Of a stretch of DNA of 42,847 bases, positions 7,089 through 42,847 are shown in pieces. The notes beneath the pieces were generated by a model that did not search any database, was not told where the DNA came from, and was given only the letters and a program-made list of their open reading frames with translations. Source of the stretch: a virus; the IMG/VR virus record IMGVR_UViG_3300021446_000309; one strand, 5' to 3'. Positions within the stretch are counted from its first letter, which is position 1. Every line of letters begins with the position of its first letter. A program made the translations under genes and the position numbers.

Positions 7089-7239
7089 AGGCGTTCCCTC
7101 CAGTGTTCGTGCAGTCCTCGCAGAACGCGAGGGTCACGATTCCCCGATAGCCACGATAGCTCTCGGTCGTCGCCGGGTCGTCTATCTCGCTTCCACACTG
7201 CTCGCACTGGTACGTCTCCGCTGTGGGCTGGTCACTCAT
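7078..7239 (-). CDS. 53-aa CxxC...CxxC micro-protein (not in the ORF track)
   Basis: Manual translation MSDQPTAETYQCEQCGSEIDDPATTESYRGYRGIVTLAFCEDCTNTGGNAYAR*. Confidence 0.75.
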   Translation of the reverse strand: MSDQPTAETYQCEQCGSEIDDPATTESYRGYRGIVTLAFCEDCTNTGGNAYAR

Positions 7240-8173
7240 CGTCGCGTCCTCCGTGTTGTGTCGTGTCCATGTTCGGTGATCGGGGGGTCACGCCGTCCGT
7301 CGACGCGGCTAACGTCTGTTGCTTTCCATCGGTGAACAGCGGTACTGTGGCCGGATCGTAGCTCAGATACAGCCGTTCGATCCGATCCGAGTTCTCCTTT
7401 GCAGCCGACCGGTTGTATGAGCGTTCGATCACAGTCCTCGCGAGGGCATCAAGCCCCTCCGGTGGGTCTTGATACGATACCATCCAGTGCCCGTCGACGT
7501 TCGCCAGCGTCTCCACGAGGCGGGCGTGGTCGAATGATGGGCCACGGTAGTAGCTGCCGTTTGCCTCGATGTACGGCGGATCGAGGTAGTACAGCGTCTC
7601 TGCGTCTTTGTCGTCGTACCGACCGAGAATATCGGCGTAGTCGAGCGACTCGATAGAGACGCCACGGAACCGGTCGCGAATCTCGATGATCCGCTCCGGC
7701 ATCTGTTGCCAGATACGTGACTTCTGCGGGCCGCGTTGTGGGGTATCTGTCGCGAAACCGGCTCGCTGTCCGTAGCGACCGCTAAAGCTGGCGTACCGGA
7801 GATAAACCCATCTGGCCGCCCGCTCGACGACGTTCTCAGGCCAGCCGTCACCGTTCCTGAACTGATCTGCCCACTCGTTGTAGGTGGTTCGCGAGAACGG
7901 GATGTTCCGCACCCGCTCGGCCAGTGCTTCGGGATGCTCACGACACGCGCGGAAGAACTCGACGATTGCGTCGTCACGGTCGTTGTATATCTCGCACCCT
8001 GACCGTGGTTTGTTGAGCAGGACGCCGGCTGCCCCGCCGAACGGGACGACGAAGTTGTCGTGTGTACGCAGATTCTCAACGATCCACGACGCGAGATAGG
8101 TCTTCGAGCCGATGTAGGGGAATGCGGAGAACGTCGAGCCGCGAGACGAACTGCCTGTGGACTGGTCGCTCAT
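7232..8173 (-). CDS. dam: Dam-like (D12 class) N6-adenine DNA methyltransferase
   Basis: FPYIGSK, VVPFGGAAGV (motif I), YNDRD and YYLDPPY (motif IV). The target sequence cannot be determined from sequence alone. Confidence 0.9.
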   Translation of the reverse strand: MSDQSTGSSSRGSTFSAFPYIGSKTYLASWIVENLRTHDNFVVPFGGAAGVLLNKPRSGCEIYNDRDDAIVEFFRACREHPEALAERVRNIPFSRTTYNEWADQFRNGDGWPENVVERAARWVYLRYASFSGRYGQRAGFATDTPQRGPQKSRIWQQMPERIIEIRDRFRGVSIESLDYADILGRYDDKDAETLYYLDPPYIEANGSYYRGPSFDHARLVETLANVDGHWMVSYQDPPEGLDALARTVIERSYNRSAAKENSDRIERLYLSYDPATVPLFTDGKQQTLAASTDGVTPRSPNMDTTQHGGRDDE

Positions 8174-8544
8174 CGGCTGTCCTCCGCGTATGGGTGGTCG
8201 GTGAGGAGGGTCGCGAGTCGGTCGGCCTCGCGTGCGATGATTTCACCGTGGCACGCTGGCTCGTCCTCGTCGAGTCGCTGACACCAGCACCCGAGCGTCT
8301 GCCCGGCGAGTCCTGCGATCTCCGTCCGGAACGCCGGGTCAACGCGAAGCCGTCGCAAAAACTCCTCGCGGAACAGTGTGAGAGACTCCTCGCGAGTGTG
8401 CGTGTCGAGGGGGTACGGGTTGCCGAGCCACCCACGGTCGCCGATTGGCGTCTTCGTGATGTCACGCCCGCCGGGACCACGCCCGATATAGACGTCGGTC
8501 GAGTCGGCTTTGCAGTGGCCGACCTGTGTCTCGTCGGGAGCCAT
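8170..8544 (-). CDS. DUF4326-family protein
   Basis: VYIGRG...LGNPY...LAGQTLGCWC...CHGEII signature. Start refined to ATG 8544. Confidence 0.8.
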   Translation of the reverse strand: MAPDETQVGHCKADSTDVYIGRGPGGRDITKTPIGDRGWLGNPYPLDTHTREESLTLFREEFLRRLRVDPAFRTEIAGLAGQTLGCWCQRLDEDEPACHGEIIAREADRLATLLTDHPYAEDSR

Positions 8545-8981
8545 CACTCGCTCCCCCCGAGCAGATCGTGTTTCTGGAGCCACGTCGAGGAGACTGCACA
8601 CTCCCGGTCTGTCTGCTCCAGTGCCTTGCGCTGTGCCTCAAGTGGGGACGTCGCCGTCACGGTCTCGTCCCATCCGACGCCCTGATCGCCGCCGATTCCG
8701 ACCATCGGAACACGGTATTCCCGTGCGGCGTCGTCGGCAGGCTCGCCGCCGTCTATCGCCAGTTCACCGATGTAGCGACGGCGTTTCGAGCCACAGTCAG
8801 GGCAGCCGTCGGAACCGTCGTCGAGGTATTCGGTCTCGCACACAGAGCAGCGGTACTCGTTCGGCTCAGATGCCGTCATGTCGGCGTCGGCATCTCGATC
8901 CGGAGTGTGGGTCTCGATGATCGAACACTGCTTGCACAGCGCGTTCCGGGGCGTTCGAGAGCCGCAGTTGTTGCAGGTCAT
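8544..8981 (-). CDS. Double Zn-finger protein
   Basis: CNNC...CKQC and CSVC...CPDCG, followed by an IDGGEPAD linker. Start refined to 8981. Confidence 0.7.
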   Translation of the reverse strand: MTCNNCGSRTPRNALCKQCSIIETHTPDRDADADMTASEPNEYRCSVCETEYLDDGSDGCPDCGSKRRRYIGELAIDGGEPADDAAREYRVPMVGIGGDQGVGWDETVTATSPLEAQRKALEQTDRECAVSSTWLQKHDLLGGSE

Positions 8982-29641: not shown

Positions 29642-30061
29642 ATGGCGCTCGGTGCTGGACTACTGGAAGGCGCGCGCGTCTCGAAGCTCGTCGGTATCCG
29701 CCCCGACGACTTCGCCTACCAATCGCACTCCGGGCTGGTCTTCCACCCGCAGGACGAGAACAACACCGGCAACATCCCGTTCTACGAGGTGACAGCGGCA
29801 GGGGACAGCATCACCGTCGATCTCGCGGCAGCTGTTCGTGAGTTCGACAGTCCGGCCCTCCAACTCAACTTCGTGTTCGGATCAACGAGCTTCACCGTAC
29901 AGAACGCCGCTGGACAGACGGTGGTCGATGAGCTATCCGGTTTCGACACCGACAACTTCCATGCCTCACTCGCTGCGACAGACAAGGAACTCACGGTGAC
30001 GTCGTTCGACGATACGACGGCTGGCCTCTACGCGTTCCAGCTCGTCTACGATCAGGAGTAG
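29642..30061 (+). CDS. Small beta-rich structural protein, paralog A
   Basis: GIRP...HPQDENNTGNIPFYE shared with 30157-30558. Confidence 0.7.
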   Translation: MALGAGLLEGARVSKLVGIRPDDFAYQSHSGLVFHPQDENNTGNIPFYEVTAAGDSITVDLAAAVREFDSPALQLNFVFGSTSFTVQNAAGQTVVDELSGFDTDNFHASLAATDKELTVTSFDDTTAGLYAFQLVYDQE

Positions 30062-30156
30062 TCCGGCGCGCGACGGGGAAATTCTGCGTCGGACAACCGG
30101 CAGGTTTGCAGGGTACGAGGACGGACGACTAAGGGCACGGACACACGAGTAGCAGT

Positions 30157-30558
30157 ATGCTCATCGGCATTCGACCGCAAGACGAGGCGTACTACGGCTC
30201 CGACGGCGTTGTCTACCACCCACAGGACGAGAACAACACCGGCAACATCCCGTTCTACGAGATTACCGACACAGCCGACTCTATCGAGTTCGATCTCACC
30301 GGCCACCTCGGAGGTCTCGACACGCCTATCGCTGTCTTACACACGGCGTTCGGCACGACTGACTTCGATCTACGCGACCGCGAGACCGACGATGCGATCA
30401 TCTCCGAGCAGTCCGGCTTCGATCAGGATACGTGGATCGTCGATCTCTCCGGCACGTCCGGACGGTACGAACTCACGCAGTTCGACACGACGAACGGCGT
30501 CGATGGAACACAGGCCGGCTGGCAGGCGTACATAACGCTCCTCGGCGCGGAGACGTAG
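30157..30558 (+). CDS. Small beta-rich structural protein, paralog B
   Basis: Same motif as 29642-30061; has its own promoter. Confidence 0.7.
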   Translation: MLIGIRPQDEAYYGSDGVVYHPQDENNTGNIPFYEITDTADSIEFDLTGHLGGLDTPIAVLHTAFGTTDFDLRDRETDDAIISEQSGFDQDTWIVDLSGTSGRYELTQFDTTNGVDGTQAGWQAYITLLGAET

Positions 30559-30631
30559 CCCCAGATGGTATAGTCGGGGGAATTGCCGGAAGTGACCAAA
30601 CTGCTTTGTGAGCGCGCGCTCTCGGACGCCT

Positions 30632-31534
30632 ATGGGCAATGAGTCACCAGAGACCGCGCTCGATAACCGACTCTCCGAGGTAGAAACCGCTATCGTCTAC
30701 GTCGAAACCCCGGCTGGTCGGAACGTGCCACTCCGCGTCGACGGTGAAGGCCGGCTCGTGACGAACCTCGATGCAGCCACGCTGCTCGAAACCGATCTTC
30801 AGGAAATCGGTGGGCAGCCACAGTCAGGCGTGGACGTCGCCGCACGGATCGACGCGCTCGTGGCTGCACTCGTCTCGAACGGTGGGGATGCACTGCGAAT
30901 CAGTTCACCAGCTCCGCTCGACGTCTCAAGTTCGGAGGTGGACGTCAATCTCACAACACAGACAGCATCACCGCTCACGATTACCGACGACGGCAGTCTC
31001 GCCGTCGCGTCGCTTCCAGAGCCACTCGACGTTTCGAGCGCAGAGGTGGACGTCGATCTAAACACACAGACGCTCGGGGCAGTCACGGTGACAGATGATG
31101 GGAGTCTCGTGCTGGATGCCGCGAATCAGTCCACACTCCCCGTGGAGCAGCAGTCCCCGGTCGGGATCGAGGACTCCACCGGTACACAGACTGACCCCGC
31201 TATCGCGACCGCGTACCTCGACTACCAGAACACCGGGTACGATCTGATCGCGTCCGGTGATCTCGTTATCGGCCCCAGTGCGGTCGAACGCGGGACAGCC
31301 GTCGTCATCGCCGCGTCGTCGGTAGACAACAACGCGTTCTCTGTCTCTGTCCAGTGGGAAGACGGGTCTGGAAACGTGTTTCAGAGCGAGAGTGCCGCAG
31401 ATATAGGCCTCGATAACGTCACCGAGGACTACGCTCGGCTGGTCCGGAAGGCTCCACAGGTTGAACTCACCATCACCGACGAGTCCGGGGCTGCACAGAA
31501 CAACATCAACATCCATACCGACACGGAGCGGTGA
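30632..31534 (+). CDS. Spike/fibre-like protein with a 36-aa tandem repeat and C-terminal beta domain
   Basis: PLDVSSSEVDVNL...TDDGSL occurs twice. Confidence 0.6.
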   Translation: MGNESPETALDNRLSEVETAIVYVETPAGRNVPLRVDGEGRLVTNLDAATLLETDLQEIGGQPQSGVDVAARIDALVAALVSNGGDALRISSPAPLDVSSSEVDVNLTTQTASPLTITDDGSLAVASLPEPLDVSSAEVDVDLNTQTLGAVTVTDDGSLVLDAANQSTLPVEQQSPVGIEDSTGTQTDPAIATAYLDYQNTGYDLIASGDLVIGPSAVERGTAVVIAASSVDNNAFSVSVQWEDGSGNVFQSESAADIGLDNVTEDYARLVRKAPQVELTITDESGAAQNNINIHTDTER

Positions 31535-31540
31535 GCACTG

Positions 31541-32860
31541 ATGCCCTACGATCAAATCGCGAACATCGGAACGCCGGCTGGCGGGCAGGTATCCGATACA
31601 CCCTACCGCGCCCGTAAGACCGCCCCACAGACAGTCCAGTTCTCCATCGACCCCGACTTCCCACTCTCGAAGAAGCGGTGGTTCTACGCCTCGAATGGAA
31701 CGGCGTTCGATGCGACCAACTTCGACGGACGTCCGGGCGAGATACGGCTCTCAACGACGGCCACCGGGAGCGACACCGCCCGACTCCGAACGGCGATCTC
31801 CGGCGAGTACGTCTCTCACGCGCTCGCAGAGCCGGGGCAAGCCGTCCGTATCCCGACAGACCATCTCGACTACCGAACGAACGGCGGTGTGCAACTGACA
31901 CACGGGCGCATCATTTGGGGTGCGTTCACCTACGATGCTGCTACGAACAGCATCGAGAACGGCTTAGGACTGGTGATCGACAACAACGGTATCTCGGCGT
32001 TCCTCCGCAAGAACTCGGCTCACGTCAGTAACTCACCAGTGCAACAGGAAGACTGGAATCTCACCACCGTACTCGATCCCGGCGAAGGGGGCGGTACACT
32101 GTCACTGCAAGACGGACTGACGTGGAACGAGCCGTACACATGGTACAACGCGAATCCGCTGACCATCGGCTACGTCGACGCGCAACTCGACCGCCTCCGC
32201 CCGGTTCACCAGTTTCGTCCGGAGACGTCTCCCACGATGGGGACGCCGAATCTTCCGATTCAGTTCGTCGTTGAGAATCAGGGAACCGCCGACCCGCTGG
32301 AGCTGTTCACCGGCGGTGTCCAGTACAGCACGTTCGGCGCGTCACCGGAAGCGCGGAATATCCGGCGTACAGTCACCGGACGCAGTACGTCGAACAGCTT
32401 CATCAACACCGCAGCCGTCGCGAACAACAACGCAGTCGATCCGTTCGCTGAAGCCGGTGTCCCGCTACTCGCCGTCCGTCGTCGAGGGAGACAGACGATG
32501 CCGCTCAACACAGAGAGCTTCGAGATACGGCCAACGAACGACATCTACGCGTTTGTGTGGGACGAGTACGACGAGGGGGCTGCCCTCACCGGCGCGAACT
32601 TCAGACAGCCACACGGCGACAACACAGGCGTTGAGAGCCAAGTCGAAGTCGATACAGAGGCGACGGCGTACGCACCGGGGACAGCTGTCTTACGCGAGGT
32701 AATTCCCCTTCGCGGCGGTGACACTGTTCCAATCGAGTTCGCTGATGACCGGACTGGAAACGATGTACCTGATCGGGCTGCAAGACTTGTGACGGCGGTT
32801 CATCGTGGAAGCGGCTGTGATGTTGACCCGATTCGTGCGCGGCTGACTGAGGGATACTAA
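31541..32860 (+). CDS. Concanavalin/lectin-like virion protein
   Basis: 439 aa, beta-rich; ...QEDWN...YTWY...HQF...PNLPIQFVVEN resembles a widespread viral beta-sandwich protein. Confidence 0.5.
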   Translation: MPYDQIANIGTPAGGQVSDTPYRARKTAPQTVQFSIDPDFPLSKKRWFYASNGTAFDATNFDGRPGEIRLSTTATGSDTARLRTAISGEYVSHALAEPGQAVRIPTDHLDYRTNGGVQLTHGRIIWGAFTYDAATNSIENGLGLVIDNNGISAFLRKNSAHVSNSPVQQEDWNLTTVLDPGEGGGTLSLQDGLTWNEPYTWYNANPLTIGYVDAQLDRLRPVHQFRPETSPTMGTPNLPIQFVVENQGTADPLELFTGGVQYSTFGASPEARNIRRTVTGRSTSNSFINTAAVANNNAVDPFAEAGVPLLAVRRRGRQTMPLNTESFEIRPTNDIYAFVWDEYDEGAALTGANFRQPHGDNTGVESQVEVDTEATAYAPGTAVLREVIPLRGGDTVPIEFADDRTGNDVPDRAARLVTAVHRGSGCDVDPIRARLTEGY

Positions 32861-32919
32861 CGGCAGTCTACCACGGGAAACTGGCACACAGTAATAGTAT
32901 TCCAGCGTAAAATAGCAGT

Positions 32920-33900
32920 ATGGCACAAGAGAGAGTTCCGCAGTCTCCGAAAGTAGGCTCCAAACAGGGATATACATGGGGCGACGAACCCGCGAGATTA
33001 GAAGATCGGCTAAGTTACACAGCTGTTGCGTCCACCGACTCGAAACTCTATATTGTCGGTGGTCGGTCGGTAGCGCGCAATGATCCAACGCCGTTAGTAC
33101 AACGGTACGATCCCGCCGATAACACGGTGGAAACACTACAACAGATGTCGACAGATCGAGAGCGGGCGGCTGTCGGAGTTATTGATGGTAAAATCTACGC
33201 CGTCGGTGGATTCAGCGGCGGTTTCCCACGTTGGAAGGACGTACTGGAGCGGTATGATCCTGACAGCGACTCATGGACCACGCTTGAACCGATGCCGACA
33301 CCGCGAGATGGACTATCTGCTGAGGTTATCGACGGGAAACTGTACGCTATTGGCGGGCGAGACAGTGACAACAACGACTTAGATGTAGTGCGAGTATATG
33401 ATCCGGATAGCGATTCATGGACGACGCGCACCCCCATGTCGAACGCGCGAAAGAAGTTCGCCACGGGTGTCATCGACGGAGAGATATATGTTGCGGGAGG
33501 GGATCAAACCGTATACAGCGACCCCATACAATCGGTAGAACGATACGATCCCAAGAGTGATTCGTGGACGGCGCTGGAACCTATACCAGACCATTCAGAC
33601 GCCTCTAACGGCCCGTACTATCCGTTTGTTCATGGCGGTGCTGTCCTCAACGGAGAGCTGCACACAGTTGGTGGATATAATGCCAGCGAGAGCGATGAAG
33701 CGGATACAAACGTGTCTTCCGTGCAGTCGTACGATCCCACCACAGATAGATGGACAGAGAGACAGGCGTACTCTACCCGTCGTGCCGGTGTTGGAGTTAC
33801 AACAGTGGAGCAGACACTCTATGTCGTTGGTGGATACCCCTTCTACGAAGTTGACACAGAACAAGATGACATCATTTCATACTTCCAGCCGATAGCATAG
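32920..33900 (+). CDS. Kelch-repeat beta-propeller protein
   Basis: Six repeats of the form K(L/I)Y(A/I)(V/I)GG...V(E/Q)(R/S)YDP..(D/N).W. Confidence 0.9.
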   Translation: MAQERVPQSPKVGSKQGYTWGDEPARLEDRLSYTAVASTDSKLYIVGGRSVARNDPTPLVQRYDPADNTVETLQQMSTDRERAAVGVIDGKIYAVGGFSGGFPRWKDVLERYDPDSDSWTTLEPMPTPRDGLSAEVIDGKLYAIGGRDSDNNDLDVVRVYDPDSDSWTTRTPMSNARKKFATGVIDGEIYVAGGDQTVYSDPIQSVERYDPKSDSWTALEPIPDHSDASNGPYYPFVHGGAVLNGELHTVGGYNASESDEADTNVSSVQSYDPTTDRWTERQAYSTRRAGVGVTTVEQTLYVVGGYPFYEVDTEQDDIISYFQPIA

Positions 33901-33959
33901 AGCAATTCGTGTATAGAACTGGAGATTCGGCAAATCGCGGATTATAGCCAACAGATTTA

Positions 33960-33970
33960 CCCCCCCCCCC
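33960..33970 (+). repeat. C11 homopolymer between the TATA-like box and the fibre start codon
   Basis: ATTTA followed by C11, 13 nt before ATG 33984. Confidence 0.85.
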
Positions 33971-33983
33971 GCTATGTGTACGT

Positions 33984-34967
33984 ATGGCACAAAAACGGGT
34001 TCCTCCTGATGCAGTCTCAACCGACCCATTCGAGGCGACGTCGATTAAGTCAGAAGAAGGCGTCACCATCACATCGGATAAGACAATTACCTACGGTCGC
34101 GACCACGGTGCGACTGGTGATGGGAGAAGCGTCGTCATCGGTGTCGGTGCTCGTGCGCTTGCACCTGCGAACGATGTGGATGATCCTAACGGCGGCGATC
34201 CACGAAAAGTCGCTATTGGCTATGAAGCGTCGAAAAACGACGAGGTATTCGGGAGTACAGTAGTTGGGTATCAGGCTGCGCGAGATATTTCATTTAGTTC
34301 ATTCGATTCTGGCAGGTATACAGCAATGGGGTATCAGGCGGCGCAGTATGCTGACAATGAACGGATGGTAGCGGTCGGTTATCAAGCATCAAAAAATAAC
34401 ACTTCTGGAGGTGCTGTCTTTGGGTATAAAGCGGCAGAGGAAAACAGCGGAGGTTCTCTGACAGCGGTAGGAAACTACGCCGCACGGAATAACGCAGGAT
34501 ACCGCGTTACTGCGGTGGGCCGGAGAGCAGCGAATGAGAACACAGTACGGAGTGTCGTTGCAGTCGGGTTTAGCGCAGCAAACCGCAATACAGGTCGGTA
34601 TTCAACGTTGGTCGGAAACAGCGCAGGATACGACAACACAGGAGAGTTTAGCGTAGGGATTGGGTACAATGCGCTGGAGGATAACACTGGAAACTACGTT
34701 ACAGGAATAGGAATGAGTGTGGCAGATGGAGATGGCCTCGATGACACGATGACAATGGGCGACAACAACGTCGCTGTTGGATATAAGGCCATCCAAAATA
34801 ATCAGGCATCGGGTCTCATCGCCATCGGTCAATATGCTGGTCAAGATGCACAGACAGACGATCAGCTCATCATTACGCAACAGGATGGAACTCGCCGGAT
34901 GGTGATGGACCTGACGACCGGCGATTTACAGATCACCGGAACACTCACAGAGAACGCAGCACTCTAA
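33984..34967 (+). CDS. Beta-roll fibre/adhesin (YadA-head-like 14-aa repeats)
   Basis: Many (V/T)A(V/I)GYQA..NNT repeats with about 14-aa period. Confidence 0.75.
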   Translation: MAQKRVPPDAVSTDPFEATSIKSEEGVTITSDKTITYGRDHGATGDGRSVVIGVGARALAPANDVDDPNGGDPRKVAIGYEASKNDEVFGSTVVGYQAARDISFSSFDSGRYTAMGYQAAQYADNERMVAVGYQASKNNTSGGAVFGYKAAEENSGGSLTAVGNYAARNNAGYRVTAVGRRAANENTVRSVVAVGFSAANRNTGRYSTLVGNSAGYDNTGEFSVGIGYNALEDNTGNYVTGIGMSVADGDGLDDTMTMGDNNVAVGYKAIQNNQASGLIAIGQYAGQDAQTDDQLIITQQDGTRRMVMDLTTGDLQITGTLTENAAL

Positions 34968-34979
34968 GCAGATACGACA

Positions 34980-35264
34980 ATGACACAGACACTCACATAC
35001 AGCGGCGAGCAGACCACAGACGTATCGACGACACAGACAGTCATCGAGCAGAGCGTGGAAATACACACCGACGAGACGCCGACCGAAGTCAGCAGTGTCT
35101 CTCTCCGGCTGACTGACGACGGGGACGTCCGAACCATCATCTCGATCAGTGCGACCGGAGAGATCGAGGCACTGGAGGAACTTCGAGCACAGGTCGCACA
35201 GACAGCAGTCGATCTCGGCTTCGAGTCGGACGCAGAGACGCTTGAGGTAGACGTCGAATCATGA
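34980..35264 (+). CDS. Small acidic protein (possible fibre chaperone)
   Basis: 94 aa directly after the fibre gene. Confidence 0.6.
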   Translation: MTQTLTYSGEQTTDVSTTQTVIEQSVEIHTDETPTEVSSVSLRLTDDGDVRTIISISATGEIEALEELRAQVAQTAVDLGFESDAETLEVDVES

Positions 35265-35416
35265 CGGAGACGCTCACCATCACGGTCGGTGAACCGTACG
35301 CAGCGATGCTCGCAGAGCTACGAGAGATGGACGGAGCCGACCCGGACGGCGACCTGCGGGAGTTAGTCGAAGACGCGATCCATAACGGCTACCAGCAGTC
35401 GCAGAGCGAGGACTAA
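35261..35416 (+). CDS. 51-aa protein, RHH-like (not in the ORF track)
   Basis: MTETLTITVGEPYAAMLAELREMDGADPDGDLRELVEDAIHNGYQQSQSED*; ATGA overlap. Confidence 0.65.
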   Translation: MTETLTITVGEPYAAMLAELREMDGADPDGDLRELVEDAIHNGYQQSQSED

Positions 35417-35447
35417 CCCTTACACGCCTACGGACCAGTGGGTAGCC

Positions 35448-35933
35448 ATGGGCGTTGACCAACTTTCGGGCGGCTCGGGCGGTGATCCCGCCGAGTGGAC
35501 AGTAGATGCGAACGGAAATCTCGTCCCTATCGACGGTGAACCAGTCGGAGATGGAACGACGACAGCGGAGTATCAATCGGTCGATGTAGCTGAAGGAGTG
35601 GTGGTTGGAGACAACAGGCGTAATGCAGTCCGAGGAGATAGTTTCATCCTTGACGACCAGCAAACCAAAGCGTATGCCATCGGTGCGAACAATTCGCTTG
35701 TCTATCTTCAGTGTATTAGTTCTCGTTTTCACGCATTCGTCGCGCTCCGCTCCGGTGGCGCAAGTGTGAATATCTCGGCTGAGTTCGATCTTAATGGCTT
35801 CGGGTCATCCTCCGGACAGGCGGCGCACAATATCTACGGAAGTGGTGGCGACCTTATTGTCGAGAATAACTCCACTTCAAATGGACAACAATACCGGATG
35901 ATCGCTCTCGGAGATGCGGAGTGGCTTCTGTAA
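35448..35933 (+). CDS. Short fibre/receptor-binding-like protein
   Basis: N-terminal WTVDANGNLVPID; beta-rich C-terminal domain with lower GC. Confidence 0.55.
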   Translation: MGVDQLSGGSGGDPAEWTVDANGNLVPIDGEPVGDGTTTAEYQSVDVAEGVVVGDNRRNAVRGDSFILDDQQTKAYAIGANNSLVYLQCISSRFHAFVALRSGGASVNISAEFDLNGFGSSSGQAAHNIYGSGGDLIVENNSTSNGQQYRMIALGDAEWLL

Positions 35934-35993
35934 TCATGTGCTGACCACCGAGGCATACAGTGAAGTTCGTGCAAGTAGTAACTCAATAAATCT

Positions 35994-36407
35994 ATGAGCG
36001 ATACAGACGAGAGCACGGACGAGACGGTCGAAATGGGGACGATCCGCAGCTCCGCACAGCGACTCATCGCGTGGCTTCGAGGCGTTCTTACCGGGGATGC
36101 GAGCGCACCAGTCGCGCCTGTGTCGGAGTCCGACAGAGATCGAGACGGATTCCTGTCGTACACCGCCGAGTGGCACGCACTCAGTGTCGGACTGTTCGCC
36201 GGGATCACCTACGCCATCACCGGACGTGAGGCTATCGCGGGCGTCGTCGCTGCGACAGTCTTCGGACTCCGAGAGGCTCGCACAGGCCACATGAAGGACG
36301 TTCGGAAGGAAGCAGGATACACGGGTGGTGGCTTTCTCTTTGGTGTCGGTGCGGGTGTTCTCCTTCGTGAACTCACCGGGCTGTTCGGTGGGCTTCCCTT
36401 CGGATAA
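35994..36407 (+). CDS. Membrane protein, possible holin/egress protein
   Basis: Two to three TM segments; EWHAL...H.KD..KE..Y..GG; located at the end of the structural operon. Confidence 0.55.
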   Translation: MSDTDESTDETVEMGTIRSSAQRLIAWLRGVLTGDASAPVAPVSESDRDRDGFLSYTAEWHALSVGLFAGITYAITGREAIAGVVAATVFGLREARTGHMKDVRKEAGYTGGGFLFGVGAGVLLRELTGLFGGLPFG

Positions 36408-36468
36408 CCCCCATACAGTGCCGGTGACGGGGGAACGTGTTTCCCGTGGCCGTATCGAATAGCTGGTA

Positions 36469-36861
36469 ATGGTCTCATTCGCGCAGGCAGCCAGTGTCGT
36501 CGGCGCAGTGGCGTCTCTCATCACCATCCTCGCGTTGGCAGTCCAACTCGGTCGCGTGCTCGAACAGAAGACCGCGACCGACGAACAGCTCACCGCGAAC
36601 ACAGCCGCGCTCGAAACGGTGAACGATACCGTGACAGAGCTTGCACAGGACCAGAGCACGAACGCCGCTGCGATGGCGCGACTCGCCGCACGCGTCGAGA
36701 CGCAGGGGAACGAACAGGATAAGCAGTACGCGGCGGTCTACGAGGCGTTACAGGGGATCGAGGGCGTCGAGGTATCCGAAGACCTTCCAGCACCGAAGCG
36801 ATACCCACCCATCAACATCTCGTTCACATCGACACAGCGGGACGGGAGCGACGGCGAGTAG
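36469..36861 (+). CDS. N-terminal TM plus coiled-coil protein, possible egress protein
   Basis: AASVVGAVASLITILALAVQLG followed by heptad-like repeats. Confidence 0.6.
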   Translation: MVSFAQAASVVGAVASLITILALAVQLGRVLEQKTATDEQLTANTAALETVNDTVTELAQDQSTNAAAMARLAARVETQGNEQDKQYAAVYEALQGIEGVEVSEDLPAPKRYPPINISFTSTQRDGSDGE

Positions 36862-36878
36862 CTCCGACGCAGCTACTC
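36856..36878. terminator. Hairpin joining convergent stop codons
   Basis: GAGTAGCT-N7-AGCTACTC contains both TAG stops. Confidence 0.55.
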
Positions 36879-37211
36879 CACGTCGTCGCCGTCGTCGAGT
36901 TCGGCTGCGTCGATGAACTCACCACAGGCCGGACACCACACGTCTGCCGGCTGTGTCTTCAACATCCCGCCGGTCGTGAGAAGCGGGTGGTCGAAGTCCG
37001 GGGCCTGTTCACGCAGTCGGTTTCGCAACATGGTTCGTGCGCCGAAGTCGCCGGTCGCGGCTCGGACGTGGAGATCGTCGCGCGACAGATCGAGGCGTTG
37101 TCGTGCCTGTCGGACGGTGTAGAGACCGTGTGAGCCACATCGCGGGCAGGGTGTCGTATCATCCACGGTCGGCTCCCAGTGCTTGTTCGACGTCGTGAGT
37201 AGATCGCTCAT
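36873..37211 (-). CDS. CPxCG Zn-finger protein
   Basis: CPRCG...CPACG; start refined to MSDLL. Confidence 0.7.
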   Translation of the reverse strand: MSDLLTTSNKHWEPTVDDTTPCPRCGSHGLYTVRQARQRLDLSRDDLHVRAATGDFGARTMLRNRLREQAPDFDHPLLTTGGMLKTQPADVWCPACGEFIDAAELDDGDDVE

Positions 37212-37495
37212 AGCTCCACCTTCCCCGACCACTCGCGGTCGTGAACATCGACGTCATCCGGTTCACCGTGCTCGTTACACCGTGAGACTGTGATGAGCGA
37301 GTTTCCGTCGAACAGGACGACCGAGTGGGTCGCGTCATCGCCGCACTGCTTGATCTCTCCGTCATCGCGTTCGGGAAACTCGCCGCACTGCTCGTTACCG
37401 ATGAAGCTGAGTGCGCCGACGTACTCGTGTAGCTCCGGGTCATCAGCGGCCCGTCGTGCCCGCTTACAGCTCGTCAGCGTCTCGTCGTTACTCAT
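37208..37495 (-). CDS. Zn-finger protein
   Basis: C...CGDDATH...CNEH. Confidence 0.65.
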   Translation of the reverse strand: MSNDETLTSCKRARRAADDPELHEYVGALSFIGNEQCGEFPERDDGEIKQCGDDATHSVVLFDGNSLITVSRCNEHGEPDDVDVHDREWSGKVEL

Positions 37496-37880
37496 CGGAC
37501 TCACCCTCCGGCGACACGTCCAGATCGCCATTCAGGTACGCGTAGCGAACGTCCTCGACGACATCAGTGCCGTCGGGGTATCGCGGTGGGAGCAGCCGGC
37601 CAGTAGCCGAGAGCCGGTACATCGACCCGTCGCAGTCGAACACGCAGGCGTGTCGCCCGCATCCGGGCGCACCACACTCGCAGATTTCGGTCGCTGGATC
37701 GTCGCAGCACGCACACGGGAACCCGCGTTCGTAGACTGCATCGAGTACCTCGGTCGTGAACGCGGTCGTGTCCACGCGGTAGACGGTTCCGTCGCGAATG
37801 GCTGTTCGCGGGGCGTCACTCCGGGCGGTACGCTTGATGAAGCTGTCCTCCTCTGCCGTTGTCGTGAGTTCACTCGTCAT
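37488..37880 (-). CDS. Cys-rich (B-box-like) Zn-finger protein
   Basis: CACCDDPATEICECGAPGCGRHAC. Confidence 0.65.
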   Translation of the reverse strand: MTSELTTTAEEDSFIKRTARSDAPRTAIRDGTVYRVDTTAFTTEVLDAVYERGFPCACCDDPATEICECGAPGCGRHACVFDCDGSMYRLSATGRLLPPRYPDGTDVVEDVRYAYLNGDLDVSPEGESDE

Positions 37881-38232
37881 CGGTAGGGGTGTCGTCGGTA
37901 AGGGCCATCTCCATCCGGCGGAGATGGTATTGTGCGAACAGTGCGGCCTCATAGGTCTCGTAGTAGGCTTCGAGAGCGCGCTCGGAGGTCTCTGGCTGGT
38001 GCTGCTGGACTGCGTTCGTCCACGACGACAGCGTTTCTCGCATAGCCGCTGGCGACGAGTGCGCCTCGAACAGTTCGTCTAACAGCTCGTCGGCGGGTGC
38101 GCTGCCGATGTCTTCGTACCGCGCACCGTTCGATGGCTGTCGTTGGGCAACCACCATGAGCTGTTCGTCGTTCGTCGTCTTGACTGCGAACCGGATGTGT
38201 GATGTGAGCGCGATGGTCGGGTACGACGCCAT
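37870..38232 (-). CDS. Hypothetical protein
   Basis: 120 aa in a coupled operon. Confidence 0.65.
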   Translation of the reverse strand: MASYPTIALTSHIRFAVKTTNDEQLMVVAQRQPSNGARYEDIGSAPADELLDELFEAHSSPAAMRETLSSWTNAVQQHQPETSERALEAYYETYEAALFAQYHLRRMEMALTDDTPTDDE

Positions 38233-38480
38233 CAGTTACCCTCCGTTTCGTGCGCCTTCACTCGACTGGACGCCAGTGTGAGAATCCCACTGAGGAAGAC
38301 GAGGAGCGCCACTGATTCGGTGTTCGGACTCGATAGGGAGACGTCGACGGTGACGGCTGATCCGACCAGCGCACCGAGTTGATACCCTACCAGACCCACT
38401 GACAGCCACATAACGACTGCCCACGTCGTGTGCGGGGTGGGGAACAACGACCGTGTAGTGTTCGGCTGTGGGTCGCTCAT
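38232..38480 (-). CDS. Two-TM membrane protein
   Basis: Two hydrophobic segments. Confidence 0.7.
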   Translation of the reverse strand: MSDPQPNTTRSLFPTPHTTWAVVMWLSVGLVGYQLGALVGSAVTVDVSLSSPNTESVALLVFLSGILTLASSRVKAHETEGN

Positions 38481-39034
38481 GCGTCCGTCTCACCCGTCAG
38501 TCGGTCGCGTGCGGTCTTGAGCGCCTGAATATCAGCATCACCGCCCTGATCGGCGTGCCCCTCCTTCACGAGTTGTTTGAACCGGGCACGGACGACCGGA
38601 TCAGACGCGTCTTTCGGCAGGCCGAGTATCTCGTGTGGCGGGCGGGCGAGACCATCGTCGTCTCCGGAGCCGGACGGGAGCGCGGCTGCGGCCAGTGCGT
38701 CGCTCCCCGCTGTCGCGATGTTCCGGTCGTCGCTCTTGCGCTGTGCGCGGAGCCACAGATAGCAGTTCCGGAGGTTCGCCTTCTTCGAGTTGTACTGGTC
38801 GTCTGCGATGGTGTGTGGCCCGTGCTCGTCGGTCCACGTCAGGACGACACCGGGGTCAGAGCGGCTTCCGGAGACGGTGTGGAGCTGCCACTCGGTGACG
38901 CCCATCCGCTCGAAGGTATCTCCGATCTCGCGTTTGGTCCGGCGGAAGCCGACGTCGAACCGCCCGCTCTCCCGCTCGGCTGCCGGGGTTCGGGAGTCAG
39001 TTTCGGGCCACGGAAGGGACTGCTGTGCGCTCAT
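38477..39034 (-). CDS. Protein with C-terminal J-domain (HPD changed to HAD)
   Basis: PPHEILGL...VRARFKQLVKEGHADQGG...LKTARD. Confidence 0.8.
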   Translation of the reverse strand: MSAQQSLPWPETDSRTPAAERESGRFDVGFRRTKREIGDTFERMGVTEWQLHTVSGSRSDPGVVLTWTDEHGPHTIADDQYNSKKANLRNCYLWLRAQRKSDDRNIATAGSDALAAAALPSGSGDDDGLARPPHEILGLPKDASDPVVRARFKQLVKEGHADQGGDADIQALKTARDRLTGETDA

Positions 39035-39228
39035 TGGTCTGCCCCCGGTCGGTATGCAGCCGTTTCGTAGATCGGAAGTGTTCCGCCGTACTGCTCAGAC
39101 TGCCGTAGTGCGTCGTTGATCATCGCGACTGCCGAGCCGAAGTGGTCGTAGTCGGCTGCGGGAACGGATAGTGTGATCTCGATTCGTCCATCGTCGGCGT
39201 AGTCGGTGATGGTGGTGTGTTCTCCCAT
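39031..39228 (-). CDS. Small hypothetical protein
   Basis: Start refined to MGEHTT; ATGA overlap. Confidence 0.6.
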   Translation of the reverse strand: MGEHTTITDYADDGRIEITLSVPAADYDHFGSAVAMINDALRQSEQYGGTLPIYETAAYRPGADQ

Positions 39229-39238
39229 GATTGATACG

Positions 39239-39472
39239 CTATTTGCGTCGTGTCGGGGTGGTGACGGAGATTGCATCGCCACTCAGTTCGTTCGCTCGCT
39301 CGCGAAGTTCCTCAGCCTGTGCTTCTGTGATCTCGTCGAGTTGGATCGCGGCTTTGAGTCCGGTGTCGATTGCGGCTGCGAAGCCATCGACCTCGGGGTA
39401 TCGGTCCTCGACGGCGGCGATCAACTGCTCTCGTTCCGGTGTGACCCGGATGGTTGTGCGGTCGGATGCCAC
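39239..39472 (-). CDS. Ribbon-helix-helix regulator
   Basis: RTTIRVTPEREQLIAAV...FAAAIDTGL; first gene of the operon; GTG start. Confidence 0.6.
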   Translation of the reverse strand: MASDRTTIRVTPEREQLIAAVEDRYPEVDGFAAAIDTGLKAAIQLDEITEAQAEELRERANELSGDAISVTTPTRRK

Positions 39473-39832
39473 ACTCTAATGTATGCACAGGGGGTGAAGA
39501 ATCTGCCGGTAGTGGGGGAAAGCCAGTGATCGGAGGGGTCGTCAGGGCGGGATTCCGGCTCGATTCGTGCCGGTGGTGGTGTGGTGGGGTCGTGATGGGC
39601 ACGATTCGTGCATACGCGTATCTCGATAATTCTGCCGGAAGTGAATCGCGGGCGGGGCGAATCGTATGCACGGGGCGTGGAGCCGTGACAGTTCCCGTCT
39701 GACTATGTGACTGAGAGTGCGACGATCCCTGAGCGCAAACCTACAGCGCCCGCTCACCGGGTATCAAGCACCGCGAAGAAGCCGCAGTCCCTCCCGACGT
39801 CGAGAAGATGGCCGACTACCGACGCCCCGTGC

Positions 39833-40207
39833 TCACCGCAGGATATTGACACCGGAGTTCCGCATCGTCGTCGAGAAGTCGTTCTCGCTCACGAACCCGA
39901 CGACCGTCTCGGTGGTTGAGGCTCCGAGTACACTGGTGAACTCCCGCGTCCCGCTCGCGAGCGCGTTCGCATCCTCCTGAAGCGGGAGCGTATCGTAGCG
40001 GAAGCCACCCATCAGAAGCGGTCCTCGCCCGGCGACCCCGGTGACGCTATACCCACTGTACTCCAGCCGGCTCGCCTTCGCGAAGCCCCACACGTCGGCG
40101 TCGAGCATCCGCTGGTCGGTATTGCGTGCGATCCGTTCGAGGTCGTCGGCGTCCGGATTGATCTCGGACGTGTAGCCTGTCGCGGCGATGAAGACGTTTC
40201 CACTCAC
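39833..40207 (-). CDS. Hypothetical protein
   Basis: 124 aa, just downstream of the TGT-like gene. Confidence 0.6.
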   Translation of the reverse strand: MSGNVFIAATGYTSEINPDADDLERIARNTDQRMLDADVWGFAKASRLEYSGYSVTGVAGRGPLLMGGFRYDTLPLQEDANALASGTREFTSVLGASTTETVVGFVSENDFSTTMRNSGVNILR

Positions 40208-40228
40208 ACGCTCCGCTTGCGCGGGCAG

Positions 40229-41284
40229 CTACTTAGAACCAAAGCCATCGAGTGACGACTGTGCCGGGTCGTCGGCGTCGGCACGCCGGGCGCGAAGTGC
40301 AGCATCAAGCTTGTTGCCGATAGTCTCGACCGAAGGCGGTCGTCGAACGCCGTCGATCTGGATTGTAGTCGCGCCGCGAGTCGCCTCGACGTCGAGTGTG
40401 TAGTCCTCGCCCAGTAGCGTCGTAAGCTCATCAGCCGGGTCGCCGCCCGTCGCACTCGCCGGTGCGGTCACGAGCAGCGAGTCACGGGCTACGGTGTCGA
40501 TCGTAAACTCAGGGTTCACCGCGCGAACAGTCTCGCGCACATCGTCCATCGTCGGGTACGCTGCTTCGATGAGTTCCGGCGTCGTGGTCGTCTCGCCACT
40601 GAACAGCCCGCCGAGGAGCTTCGAGCCGCCGAGTTGTCGCATCCCGAGCTGATGCGCGTAGAGTCGGGCAGAGATCGTAATGCGAGCATATGCACCGTCG
40701 AACGGCCAGTCAAGCCACTTGTCGCCGGCCCATATCTGTCCACCACGGAACGACTGGCGGATGATACTCGCGGAGTCGAACGAGGACGCGCCCGGAACGT
40801 AGTTCAGCCGGTCGAGTTGTGCGTTCGGTGAGCCGCCGAGAACGTGGACGTCGTGGAGTCGGGCGTACTCGGTGATCGAGTACGGCGCAGTGCCCCACGA
40901 CTGCTGTGTCGGGAGGCCGACTCGAAAGCGGTCTGGAACGTCCACAGGTTTCACCTCCTGTTTCGGCGTCACGACAACATCGCGTGCGTGTTCCAACAGC
41001 TCATCAGCGACCGTGTACGCGTTCGCAGCAGAGATGTTGCCGGTAATGTCGGGGGCGACAGCGATACGCGGGCGGTGCGCCTCACACGCCGTTCGCATTC
41101 GCTCGCGCGCCTGTCCGAAGGTGAGGTCTCCAGCCCGAATCGCACGGAACGGCCAGTCAACGAAATCGTAGTCGAATCCACTCGGCGGATTCGTTCCGAT
41201 CCGATACCCGAGGAACACAGGTGTCGCAGCGAGTGCAGATGCCGCCGGACGAGACCCCTCAACCGTGACTGCGAGGTCGGACAT
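40229..41284 (-). CDS. TGT/DpdA-like TIM-barrel protein (DUF6610-like) with C-terminal PIP box
   Basis: FVDWPF, AVAPD, DVHVLGGSPNAQ...SSFDSAS correspond to the H.LG...SxD motifs of guanine transglycosylases; C-terminus QSSLDGF. Confidence 0.6.
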   Translation of the reverse strand: MSDLAVTVEGSRPAASALAATPVFLGYRIGTNPPSGFDYDFVDWPFRAIRAGDLTFGQARERMRTACEAHRPRIAVAPDITGNISAANAYTVADELLEHARDVVVTPKQEVKPVDVPDRFRVGLPTQQSWGTAPYSITEYARLHDVHVLGGSPNAQLDRLNYVPGASSFDSASIIRQSFRGGQIWAGDKWLDWPFDGAYARITISARLYAHQLGMRQLGGSKLLGGLFSGETTTTPELIEAAYPTMDDVRETVRAVNPEFTIDTVARDSLLVTAPASATGGDPADELTTLLGEDYTLDVEATRGATTIQIDGVRRPPSVETIGNKLDAALRARRADADDPAQSSLDGFGSK

Positions 41285-41315
41285 ACGTCACTGTCGGGAG
41301 CACCACACTTAGAGG

Positions 41316-41675
41316 CTACTGGAGATCGCGGTCGCCCATGTACGGCGAGACCAGCACGTAACAGCCGAACGTGAAGCACACCGCCGCGAACAGGGCCGTC
41401 CACAGCCCCATGACCGCAGAGTTGAACGCGAACAGTCCCGCTAAGAACGTGAGGAACAGCATCGGAACGCCTGTGCCGAATAGATAGCCACTCACGTCGG
41501 TCCAGCCGATCTTCGCGGTGCGTGCTGCGTGCTGGCGCGAGTGTGTCGTGTCGGCGGTCTCATCCGAGACGCGAACCGCGATCACGTCGTCTTTCGCCCT
41601 GCTGTCGCCGTGCTCTGCGGGTGACTGTTCGGCGTCGCGATACGCGTACTTCGAGACCGGGTTGCGGTCGCTCAT
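41316..41675 (-). CDS. Two-TM membrane protein
   Basis: C-terminal hydrophobic hairpin. Confidence 0.7.
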   Translation of the reverse strand: MSDRNPVSKYAYRDAEQSPAEHGDSRAKDDVIAVRVSDETADTTHSRQHAARTAKIGWTDVSGYLFGTGVPMLFLTFLAGLFAFNSAVMGLWTALFAAVCFTFGCYVLVSPYMGDRDLQ

Positions 41676-42265
41676 GTCGCTGTCACATCAGTAACGTCGA
41701 TGGTGAGCGAGAGCGTCCGTTCGCTCGATACGGTCGGAGCAACGATGTCGATGAACTTCACGTCCTGCTCGCCGCTGCTGAGTGTGAACTGCTCCTGACC
41801 GACGACACTGCTCCCCAATGTCGCCTCTGCGGTCACGGTGAGCGTGGTACTCGTCTGATTCTCGAACGTCGTCGAGACGGTATCGCGTGCGCCCGACGAG
41901 AGGTTAGGTGTGTATCCGCAGCCACCGAACAGCCGAATATCGCTCGCGTCATAGGTCCGTGGCTCGGAGTCACCACTGCCTCCGTCGTCACCGCCGCTGC
42001 CTCCACCGCCACCGCCGGGGTCGCGCAGCGGTTCGTCGTCGGTCTGTGTCGAGGTATCCGATGACGTGTCCACTACTGACGTATCCGTCGAGGTGTCGTC
42101 GGTACTGTCGCTGCCATCATCGTAGTCCCCGATTAGATCGAGGGGCGACTCAGTGTAGTCGTCGGTGCTGTCGCCGCTGTCGGTGGAGAGCGACCCATCG
42201 GGGGAGATGAGTGCGCTGAAGCTGATCGCCTCGAACCGATCTTGCGAGCGTTTCAGTGAATCCAT
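41672..42265 (-). CDS. D/S/T/G low-complexity protein with C-terminal Ig-like domain
   Basis: Starts SLKRSQDRF; GGGGGGSGG linker; beta-rich C-terminus. Confidence 0.7.
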   Translation of the reverse strand: MDSLKRSQDRFEAISFSALISPDGSLSTDSGDSTDDYTESPLDLIGDYDDGSDSTDDTSTDTSVVDTSSDTSTQTDDEPLRDPGGGGGGSGGDDGGSGDSEPRTYDASDIRLFGGCGYTPNLSSGARDTVSTTFENQTSTTLTVTAEATLGSSVVGQEQFTLSSGEQDVKFIDIVAPTVSSERTLSLTIDVTDVTAT

Positions 42266-42274
42266 GATGATCCC

Positions 42275-42649
42275 TCAGAACCGACCCATCGCACGCCCGA
42301 CGCGTGAGCCGTCTACCTTCGCGGTGGCGAAGGTACTCGATCCCTCAGACGCGTTCGTGATCTGCGACGTGACTTGGATGTTCTCACCGGGGGAGGACAC
42401 CGTGATCGTCTGTGTCGCCTCGCGGGAGCCGTCAGCCGGGACCGTGGTCGAGGCAGTGGCTTCGGTGGAACCGTTCAGCGAGAAGGACAGCTCGACGTCG
42501 GCGGCCTGTGGATTGTCGTTCTGAAGCACCACATCGACAGTGATGGTGTTGCCGGCGACGATCTCGTCCTCTCGGACGTTACACGTCGAGATGCTCACGT
42601 TCGATGCGGTGAACTCGGGCGTGACCGTGATGGTTCCGCAGTCTACCAT
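42275..42649 (-). CDS. CARDB/Ig-like domain protein
   Basis: AGNTITVDVVLQNDN...VELSFSLNG...TTVPADGS.E; ends GRAMGRF. Confidence 0.7.
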   Translation of the reverse strand: MVDCGTITVTPEFTASNVSISTCNVREDEIVAGNTITVDVVLQNDNPQAADVELSFSLNGSTEATASTTVPADGSREATQTITVSSPGENIQVTSQITNASEGSSTFATAKVDGSRVGRAMGRF

Positions 42650-42704
42650 GCCTCAACAACGAGGGGCTATCGGCAAAACAGTTCTGGCGAACGGAATCGG
42701 GGGG

Positions 42705-42792
42705 TTACAGCACGATGAGGAGGAGCAGTAGTCCGACGAACCCGCCGCCAGCGAGGAGGAGCGCCTGTGTGTCGCCGTCCGTGGTCGTCGGC
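42705..42792 (-). CDS. 3' part of the junction-spanning membrane protein (starts at 131)
   Basis: ...EPTTTDGDTQALLLAGGGFVGLLLLLIVL, TAA at 42705-42707. Confidence 0.85.
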
Positions 42793-42847
42793 TCGTCGCC
42801 AGTATCGTCGCCCGTGTCGTCACCGCTCGCGGTGACAGTGATCTCGC
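42793..42847. repeat. Terminal direct repeat, copy 2
   Basis: Identical to 1-55. Confidence 0.95.

Follow-up and report, generated by a model that had tools for sequence, protein, structure and literature searches.

The stretch of viral DNA analysed here, called the window throughout, is the 42,847-nucleotide IMG/VR virus record IMGVR_UViG_3300021446_000309, derived from a halite metagenome, and our subject is the protein encoded on its minus strand at 40229..41284. The list of open reading frames (ORFs) and their translations show a real ORF of 351 amino acids followed by a stop, and the alignment of its N-terminus, MSDLAVTVEG, with those of its homologs backs the start call. The protein belongs to the DUF6610 family, also named DpdA4, and carries a C-terminal extension that ends in a putative PCNA-interacting peptide (PIP). 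Its features, all on the minus strand, are given below with the evidence for each, including the AlphaFold2 (AF2) confidence measure, the predicted local distance difference test (pLDDT), and alignment with tRNA-guanine transglycosylases (TGTs).

40229..41284, minus strand: whole coding sequence, DpdA4/DUF6610-family protein with C-terminal extension (Pfam PF20314, phrog_16059)
40640..41284, minus strand: residues 1-215, predicted catalytic, TIM-barrel-like DUF6610 domain (AF2 pLDDT mostly above 90; VIA structural match; BFVD; hhalign)
41156..41158, minus strand: D43 (in FVDWPF), near-invariant Asp and candidate general acid/base (at least 90% conserved in 128 sequences)
41048..41050, minus strand: D79 (in VAPDI), near-invariant Asp, placed by hhalign on the TGT base-recognition Asp (hhalign; conservation)
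40826..40846, minus strand: HVLGGSP, residues 147-153 (HVLGGSPNAQ, 147-156), placed by hhalign on TGT YLMGVGKP
40766..40783, minus strand: SFDSAS, residues 168-173, with D170 as candidate nucleophile (hhalign; S168 and D170 near-invariant)
40553..40639, minus strand: residues 216-244, low-confidence linker (pLDDT below 50 at residues 218-242)
40265..40552, minus strand: residues 245-340, extra C-terminal alpha/beta domain (AF2 pLDDT 70-86; common to few relatives)
40232..40264, minus strand: residues 341-351, disordered acidic tail with PIP-like motif, ending DDPAQSSLDGFGSK before the stop (pLDDT below 50 at residues 344-351)
40241..40261, minus strand: QSSLDGF, residues 342-348, three residues (GSK) short of the stop, putative PCNA-interacting peptide (QxxLxxFx match)

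An earlier, sequence-only reading of this DNA had drawn attention to the TGT-like motifs HVLGGSP..Q and SFDSAS, to an extra C-terminal domain and to a terminal QSSLDGF. All are where it had put them: the two motifs are the best conserved of the family, the domain occupies approximately residues 245-340 and is common to only about six relatives, and the coordinates of the terminal motif are exact.

The DUF6610 domain and its likeness to transglycosylases

The protein matches Pfam DUF6610 (PF20314) over residues 37-198 (E 2.2e-27, 96.4 bits against a cut-off of 27) and phrog_16059 among the PHROG families (E 2.6e-41). An exhaustive phmmer search gathered 116 representatives, and a Pfam scan assigned all 128 short relatives to DUF6610; ten residues (F41, D43, D79, K108, H147, L149, G150, G151, S168 and D170), each at least 90% conserved in these 128 sequences, are all present here. 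Homologs were found by tblastn in 46 haloviruses (HF1, HF2, HRTV, HCTV and others), at 41-43% identity and over residues 33-190 only. NCBIfam held no family match for the protein, an IMG/VR search with the single protein found no close relative, and megablast of window positions 30000-42847 against the phage collection found no DNA match. Near-identical DUF6610 genes also lie in the chromosomes of Halospeciosus flavus and Halorubrum sp. F4 (L018:7935-8786 and L019:7935-8789), a sequence likeness across two genera that suggests a shared provirus or mobile element.

The only paper discussing DUF6610 in the literature searched gave the family the name DpdA4 and presumed it to supply archaeal viruses with their 7-deazaguanine DNA transglycosylase (Cui, Hutinet et al., NAR 2023, PMC10516641); in the published HHpred analysis HVTV1_69, the homolog of virus HVTV-1, matched DUF6610 at 100% and TGT at 92.5%, and homologs were described ‘as a singleton modification gene’ in HF2 and others. 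HVTV1_69, which adjoins FolE, QueE, QueD, QueC and QueF in a virus whose DNA contains 30% dPreQ1, is 26% identical to the window protein over 139 residues (E 3e-10). Both belong to the same Pfam family and share the core motifs HxLGG.P, SxD and VVPx, and HVTV1_69 is likewise a predicted DNA 7-deazaguanine transglycosylase of an archaeal virus, but it has ‘VGGDY’ where the window protein has ‘VAPDI’, an N-terminus extended by a long acidic stretch, another C-terminal domain and no QxxLxxF tail, and its virus carries the synthesis genes that are missing from the window ORFs scanned. The window protein sits instead on the HF2-like ‘VAPDI’ branch of DUF6610, together with the singleton DpdA4 of HF2-like haloferacalesviruses (HrrHF2_365), which also occurs without que genes and shows the 41-43% identity over residues 33-190 noted above. 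In those viruses the gene is in the replication module beside PolB, and, unlike the window protein, the HF2-type DpdA4 has a conserved C-terminal region, PFPGREYFY...PAYL, and no PIP motif. Across five loci (L001:3851-4765; L003, L004, L006 and L010) this C-terminal region reads PFPGR(E/A)YFYRDD...(P)EW, and it is absent from the window protein.

The AF2 model of residues 1-215 matches Z. mobilis TGT (1P0B) in VIA with Z scores of 12.4-12.8 and root-mean-square deviations of 3.5-4.0 over 211-218 of 219 residues. In BFVD the top match is the HCTV-1 DUF6610 homolog (E 7.8e-12) and the next a ParB/sulfiredoxin-annotated phage protein (E 3.6e-11); the best matches thereafter include several phage queuine tRNA-ribosyltransferase/DpdA proteins and, from two phages known for 7-deazaguanine modifications (Cellulophaga phage phiST and Vibrio phage nt-1), proteins that are uncharacterized. 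With a diverse TGT profile built from approximately 30 archaeal and bacterial TGTs, hhalign aligned residues 61-188 (P 8.5e-4) and placed D79 on D143 of E. coli TGT, HVLGGSP on YLMGVGKP, and D170 on E. coli D264 in MFDCV, which we take to be the equivalent of Z. mobilis D280, the nucleophile. Three invariant aspartates in the active site of TGT and DpdA act as general acid/base, in base recognition and as nucleophile (PMC10164549). The sequence similarity is detectable by profile-profile comparison only: hhalign against E. coli TGT alone, or against 114 near-identical bacterial TGTs (relatives above 83% identity), was non-significant, no member of the 128 matched Pfam TGT in HMMER even at E values up to 10, phmmer and the family profile searched against PDB sequences found nothing relevant, and a scan of viral contigs with E. 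coli TGT together with phage tblastn did not reach the phage DpdAs. Compared with bacterial DpdA (S. Montevideo, 7UI4) and Z. mobilis TGT, the window domain has a TIM-barrel scaffold in its model, aspartates that align with those of base recognition and nucleophile, and the LGxG.P...FD motif pair, but it spans only about 215 residues instead of 350-400, with no Zn site and no large Ins8 or C-terminal subdomain. From model and alignment, residues 1-215 are most likely a minimal TIM-barrel relative of TGT and DpdA, with D79 and D170 as candidate active-site aspartates.

Several results weigh against taking this relative for a transglycosylase. Class II aldolases and PdxJ score alike (Z 13.1-13.5 over 182-192 residues), so that the fold does not single out TGT; the hhalign probability is only 23.7%; and the general acid/base Asp of TGT (D102/D89) mapped to no residue, D43 being a candidate for the role. 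The structural Zn site common to TGT and bacterial DpdA (PMC10164549) is absent, with one Cys in 351 residues and no conserved Cys/His cluster in the family alignment. The ‘VAPDI’ branch is only 26% identical to the sole DpdA4 whose virus is known to carry dPreQ1, and published attempts to obtain DpdA4 activity in E. coli failed, as did expression (PMC10516641). In one alternative, which the missing Zn site would suit, a PCNA-tethered DUF6610 protein performs some other DNA transaction, such as base excision by a glycosylase, AP-site processing or a different base exchange. Foldseek against the PDB returned TIM barrels of a generic kind, one of them an AP endonuclease family 2 entry, that match as well as TGT does, biochemical activity has been reported for no DUF6610 protein (PMC10516641), and archaeal PCNA clients are typically repair and replication enzymes (PMC4929162).

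The giant relatives of 1366-2247 amino acids, in which DUF6610 is N-terminal or internal, bear on this alternative too. One (P0042) joins DUF6610 to the DpdA domain PF23859, another (P0049) to helix-hairpin-helix motifs and to DUF6884, a YaaA-like domain with a putative role in base flipping and repair, and a third (P0040) to helix-hairpin-helix motifs; the remaining residues of each, approximately 1000 or more, are without a Pfam match. Such fusions point to DNA as the substrate of DUF6610, and the presence of DUF6610 and DpdA in one protein is a warning that the two domains may not be redundant and may not do the same job. Against a different DNA transaction stand the location of the HVTV-1 homolog inside a preQ1 synthesis cluster in a virus with dPreQ1 in its DNA, the two near-invariant aspartates that fall on the base-recognition and nucleophile aspartates of TGT, and the phage DpdA proteins among the closest viral structural matches, and we regard it as unlikely. 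Far less likely still is a transglycosylase that acts on host or viral tRNA. The distant kinship with TGT would allow it, but the protein has neither the Zn subdomain nor the C-terminal tRNA-binding domains found in ArcTGT, the two haloarchaeal genomes probed already encode an ArcTGT of about 500 amino acids, relatives are fused to DNA-binding helix-hairpin-helix motifs, the tail is of the PCNA type, and HF2-like viruses keep the gene beside PolB. Overall, it seems fairly probable that the window protein would carry out 7-deazaguanine exchange.

The C-terminal tail and its recurrence in the family

PIP boxes of Haloferax volcanii follow the form QxxLxxFx (PMC7776575), and the archaeal PIP consensus peptide is KTTQSTLDSFFK (PMC4929162). 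QSSLDGFG (Q342-S-S-L345-D-G-F348-G) fits the haloarchaeal form, with the motif ending three residues before the stop, and it lies outside the folded domains on a flexible segment that follows a low-confidence helix. The specificity of this format was gauged on 405 six-frame ORFs of at least 80 amino acids from the window and from halovirus loci (187 kb in all), counting Qxx[LIM]xx[FY] within the last 11 residues. Only nine viral PolBs, one 144-amino-acid ORF beside a PolB, and the 40229-41284 protein end in this way. All nine halovirus PolBs (L001:5540-8104; L002 and L004-L010) finish in Q-[TV]-G-L-x-[AS]-F and at most one further residue (C, V, L or none); that of HF2, ...GQSQTGLAAFC, resembles the window protein in that Q-x-x-L-x-x-F and one to three more residues form its very end, behind an acidic stretch, although a polymerase is a classic PCNA client and a base-exchange enzyme is not. 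Since the motif is found at the C-terminus almost only in PolBs, the tail format is specific and the same as that used by bona fide viral PCNA clients. The 144-amino-acid ORF (L007:2149-2583, plus strand), of no known family and just upstream of the viral PolB, ends ...GDQSGLAAFQ, and its sequence suggests that it may be another small PCNA-docking halovirus protein.

Within the DUF6610 family the terminal motif exceeds chance expectation. Standard tails end 5 of 138 representatives, against 0.2 expected from shuffling and 0.63 from the rate in the protein bodies, an enrichment of roughly 8- to 25-fold, and none of 2000 shuffles reached five. The tailed members are P0001, P0061 (QTGLSDY), P0074 (QQTLGDF), P0078 (QYALTQF) and P0109 (QSFIGEFI), the motifs in brackets directly preceding the stop; P0032, P0086 and P0031 end in variants with F at the hydrophobic position, and P0114 ends QRTLAELWGE. 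The tailed members are scattered over the DUF6610 tree, where well-supported branches force at least four gains or losses, and most tailed relatives are on contigs of 4.8-30 kb, so that most such ends are probably real. Because most DUF6610 proteins are without a tail, clamp docking would not be needed for the function of the family and would be an add-on in some lineages. We tentatively propose that PCNA docking is a recurrent and independently evolved add-on of DUF6610, with C-terminal tails in four lineages or more and perhaps also with internal GQQxLxxF loops, by which some archaeal viruses could couple 7-deazaguanine hypermodification of their DNA directly to the host clamp. DpdA4 itself, its stand-alone occurrence in HF2 and the hijacking of host preQ0 have already been described or proposed (PMC10516641, PMC8651126, PMC6884629); what is new here is the PIP-type tail on a DpdA4 and its recurrence across the family. 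No paper linking DpdA to PCNA was found in the literature searched, and the DpdA4 paper (PMC10516641) contains no occurrence of PCNA or PIP.

Other sequences in the family resemble the motif at different positions. Seven relatives with no terminal tail (P0014, P0017, P0026, P0068, P0099, P0101 and P0096) have internal inserts that start G/D-Q-Q/T-x-L, for example GQQQLGAF, GQQTLESF, DQAGLGAFG, GQQTLGAA and GQTTLGG, some with a full QxxLxxF and others without the aromatic residue; by their sequence these could be internal PIP-like loops. Three members of one well-supported clade (P0007, P0059 and P0050) end ...GQTTL, ...TQQSTL and ...EQETLQL, at or near Q-x-x-L, which may reflect truncated gene calls or a shortened motif. 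Some candidates were left out of the curated set: P0104 (QIDLARL) and P0121 (QFWIQLL) are probable false positives of the loose motif count, and in P0105 (QKKVLDY), as in P0115, which was not in the loose count, the sequence is probably part of the fold. We also discarded the idea that host DpdA-like proteins carry PIP tails, as haloarchaeal proteins of approximately 352 amino acids are without them.

A complex model of the tail with PCNA of Halorubrum lacusprofundi (PCNA_HALLT), a stand-in from another organism, scored 0.61 against 0.00 for the best of three controls; in calibration, 51 of 78 solved complexes and 2 of 108 mismatched pairs came up to that mark. The model runs had a contact agreement of at least 51% and a partner pLDDT of at least 47, and the modelled contacts join Q342-F348 to PCNA residues 39-46, 120-125 and 239-246; this is where PIP peptides classically dock, in the pocket beneath the interdomain connector loop. 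Because PCNA-PIP complexes have already been solved and the PCNA is a stand-in, the score measures likeness, and maybe likeness alone.

This limit of the model is one of the arguments for an alternative in which the protein is a true DpdA4-type transglycosylase and QSSLDGF is there by chance or for some other purpose; it would then act untethered and after replication, as has been proposed for other DpdA proteins. Most family members, including all copies in HF2-like viruses and the two chromosomal copies, are without a PIP tail; the motif has a single aromatic residue, F348, which is followed by G349; and all DpdA modifications have been argued to be post-replicative (PMC10516641). These points tell against docking on PCNA. 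On the other side, the terminal motif is missing from approximately 390 other halovirus ORFs and present in every PolB there, its enrichment in the family was not matched by any shuffle, and it resides on a disordered acidic tail, as in known PIP peptides. We consider an untethered enzyme improbable, and a function of the tail in PCNA binding probable. The sequence-only reading had called the motif a canonical PIP box, and this is sound as to its haloarchaeal form and overstated as to ‘canonical’, given the one aromatic residue. Its proposal of a clamp-tethered base-exchange enzyme keeps the support of that form and of the model, which would put the tail in the PCNA pocket; the PCNA-docked toolkit at which it had hinted from weaker similar tails in two other window proteins finds no support, since QQTLAAS of the Dam methylase (29 residues before the stop) and QMTLCGD of the PAPS-reductase-like protein (46 before) are internal and have no aromatic residue.

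Host preQ0, host PCNA and proposed base exchange at the fork

Among the 40 window ORFs scanned with Pfam there was no QueC/D/E/F, FolE, DNA polymerase or PCNA. The scans thus bear out what had been noted from the letters alone, that queC/D/E and folE are missing and that the enzyme is stand-alone and transglycosylase-like: by its family (DUF6610/DpdA4) and its TGT-like active-site motifs it is a homolog of the DpdA type, in a virus with no recognised preQ0 synthesis genes. The lack of linkage to que and folE genes, unlike the arrangement in HVTV-1, is not disqualifying for a DpdA4, because singletons are reported in HF2. HF2-like viruses differ in having their own PolB, which bears a PIP tail; if, as the scans suggest, the virus of the window has no replisome of its own, it must use the PCNA of its host. 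Haloferax volcanii makes preQ0 for archaeosine (PMC3017900), and the use of host preQ0 by viruses with DpdA only has been proposed for HRTV-29 and reported for Salmonella phage 7-11 (PMC8651126, PMC6884629). A caution for this supply route comes from the DpdA-only phages 7-11 and Orion, with little modification in the first (0.02% of G) and none found in the second.

The explanation that we favour is that the DpdA4-family enzyme most likely acts on double-stranded viral DNA, replacing guanine with a 7-deazaguanine base, probably preQ0 from the archaeosine pathway of the host, since no synthesis genes were found in the virus, and that this modification would protect the viral genome from restriction. 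The disordered tail, QSSLDGFGSK, would act as a PIP motif of the haloarchaeal type and tether the enzyme to host PCNA, so that the enzyme would travel with the sliding clamp on viral DNA under replication and modify this DNA at the fork or immediately behind it. If PCNA binding and 7-deazaguanine exchange were independent of each other, their combination would be slightly doubtful; treating the two parts as positively linked, we lean, by a little, towards the whole explanation of a DpdA4 enzyme with both preQ0 exchange and PCNA docking.

Bacterial DpdA acts on DNA only with the help of an ATPase partner, DpdB, and the window DpdA4 differs from it in having no DpdB-like ATPase partner. If the tail is functional, the sliding clamp could supply a minimal DpdA4 with access to DNA and with processivity, and the absence of PCNA from E. 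coli suggests itself as something that might explain the failed expression of some DpdA4 members. DpdA enzymes are thought to be post-replicative, and we know of no connection between them and the replisome. Eukaryotic Dnmt1 and UNG2 and archaeal UDG ride on PCNA by a PIP box and act on bases of newly replicated DNA; enzymes of this kind methylate or excise, and we know of none that inserts 7-deazaguanine and of none that is a viral anti-restriction enzyme. Should our explanation be true, this would be the first clamp-tethered DNA base-exchange enzyme, it would extend the client list of PCNA to a viral anti-restriction enzyme, and it would show how a polymerase-less virus, by exploiting the host clamp, gets its genome modified while the host replisome copies it. 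The picture that this suggests is of a virus of salt-loving archaea whose DNA camouflage is done at the replication fork. If the tail is inert, the protein is one more stand-alone DpdA4.

The extra domain and neighbouring genes

The domain between linker and tail (residues 245-340) is common, among the relatives, only to P0031-34, P0044 and P0068. It has its secondary structure in the order alpha-beta-beta-alpha-beta-beta-alpha, with a conserved ATRGxT motif, and folded alone it gives an alpha/beta sandwich. Its best structural Z score, 7.9, is within noise, and it matched no Pfam family and gave no Atlas lead; dimerisation or DNA contact would be guesses as to its role.

Elsewhere in the window, the Pfam scans recognised a Dam methylase, a PAPS-reductase-like protein, an HNH nuclease, a DUF4326 protein and a Kelch propeller. 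The large plus-strand genes between 12000 and 36000 (595, 742, 471, 402 and 363 amino acids, and others) had no Pfam or PHROG match with the exception of 31541-32860, which matches phrog_1645, ‘virion structural protein’ (E 1.3e-16), the sole PHROG virion match; terminase, portal and capsid families were not recognised by Pfam or PHROG in the same interval. The DUF4326 gene (8170-8601, minus strand; PF14216, E 3.7e-14) is immediately upstream of the Dam methylase gene (7232-8173). At 32920-33900 on the plus strand lies a gene for a Kelch beta-propeller of five to six blades (Kelch_1, E 8.7e-62), in the part of the window with the lowest GC content (0.54-0.56 against approximately 0.63), which suggests a recently acquired or exchangeable module.

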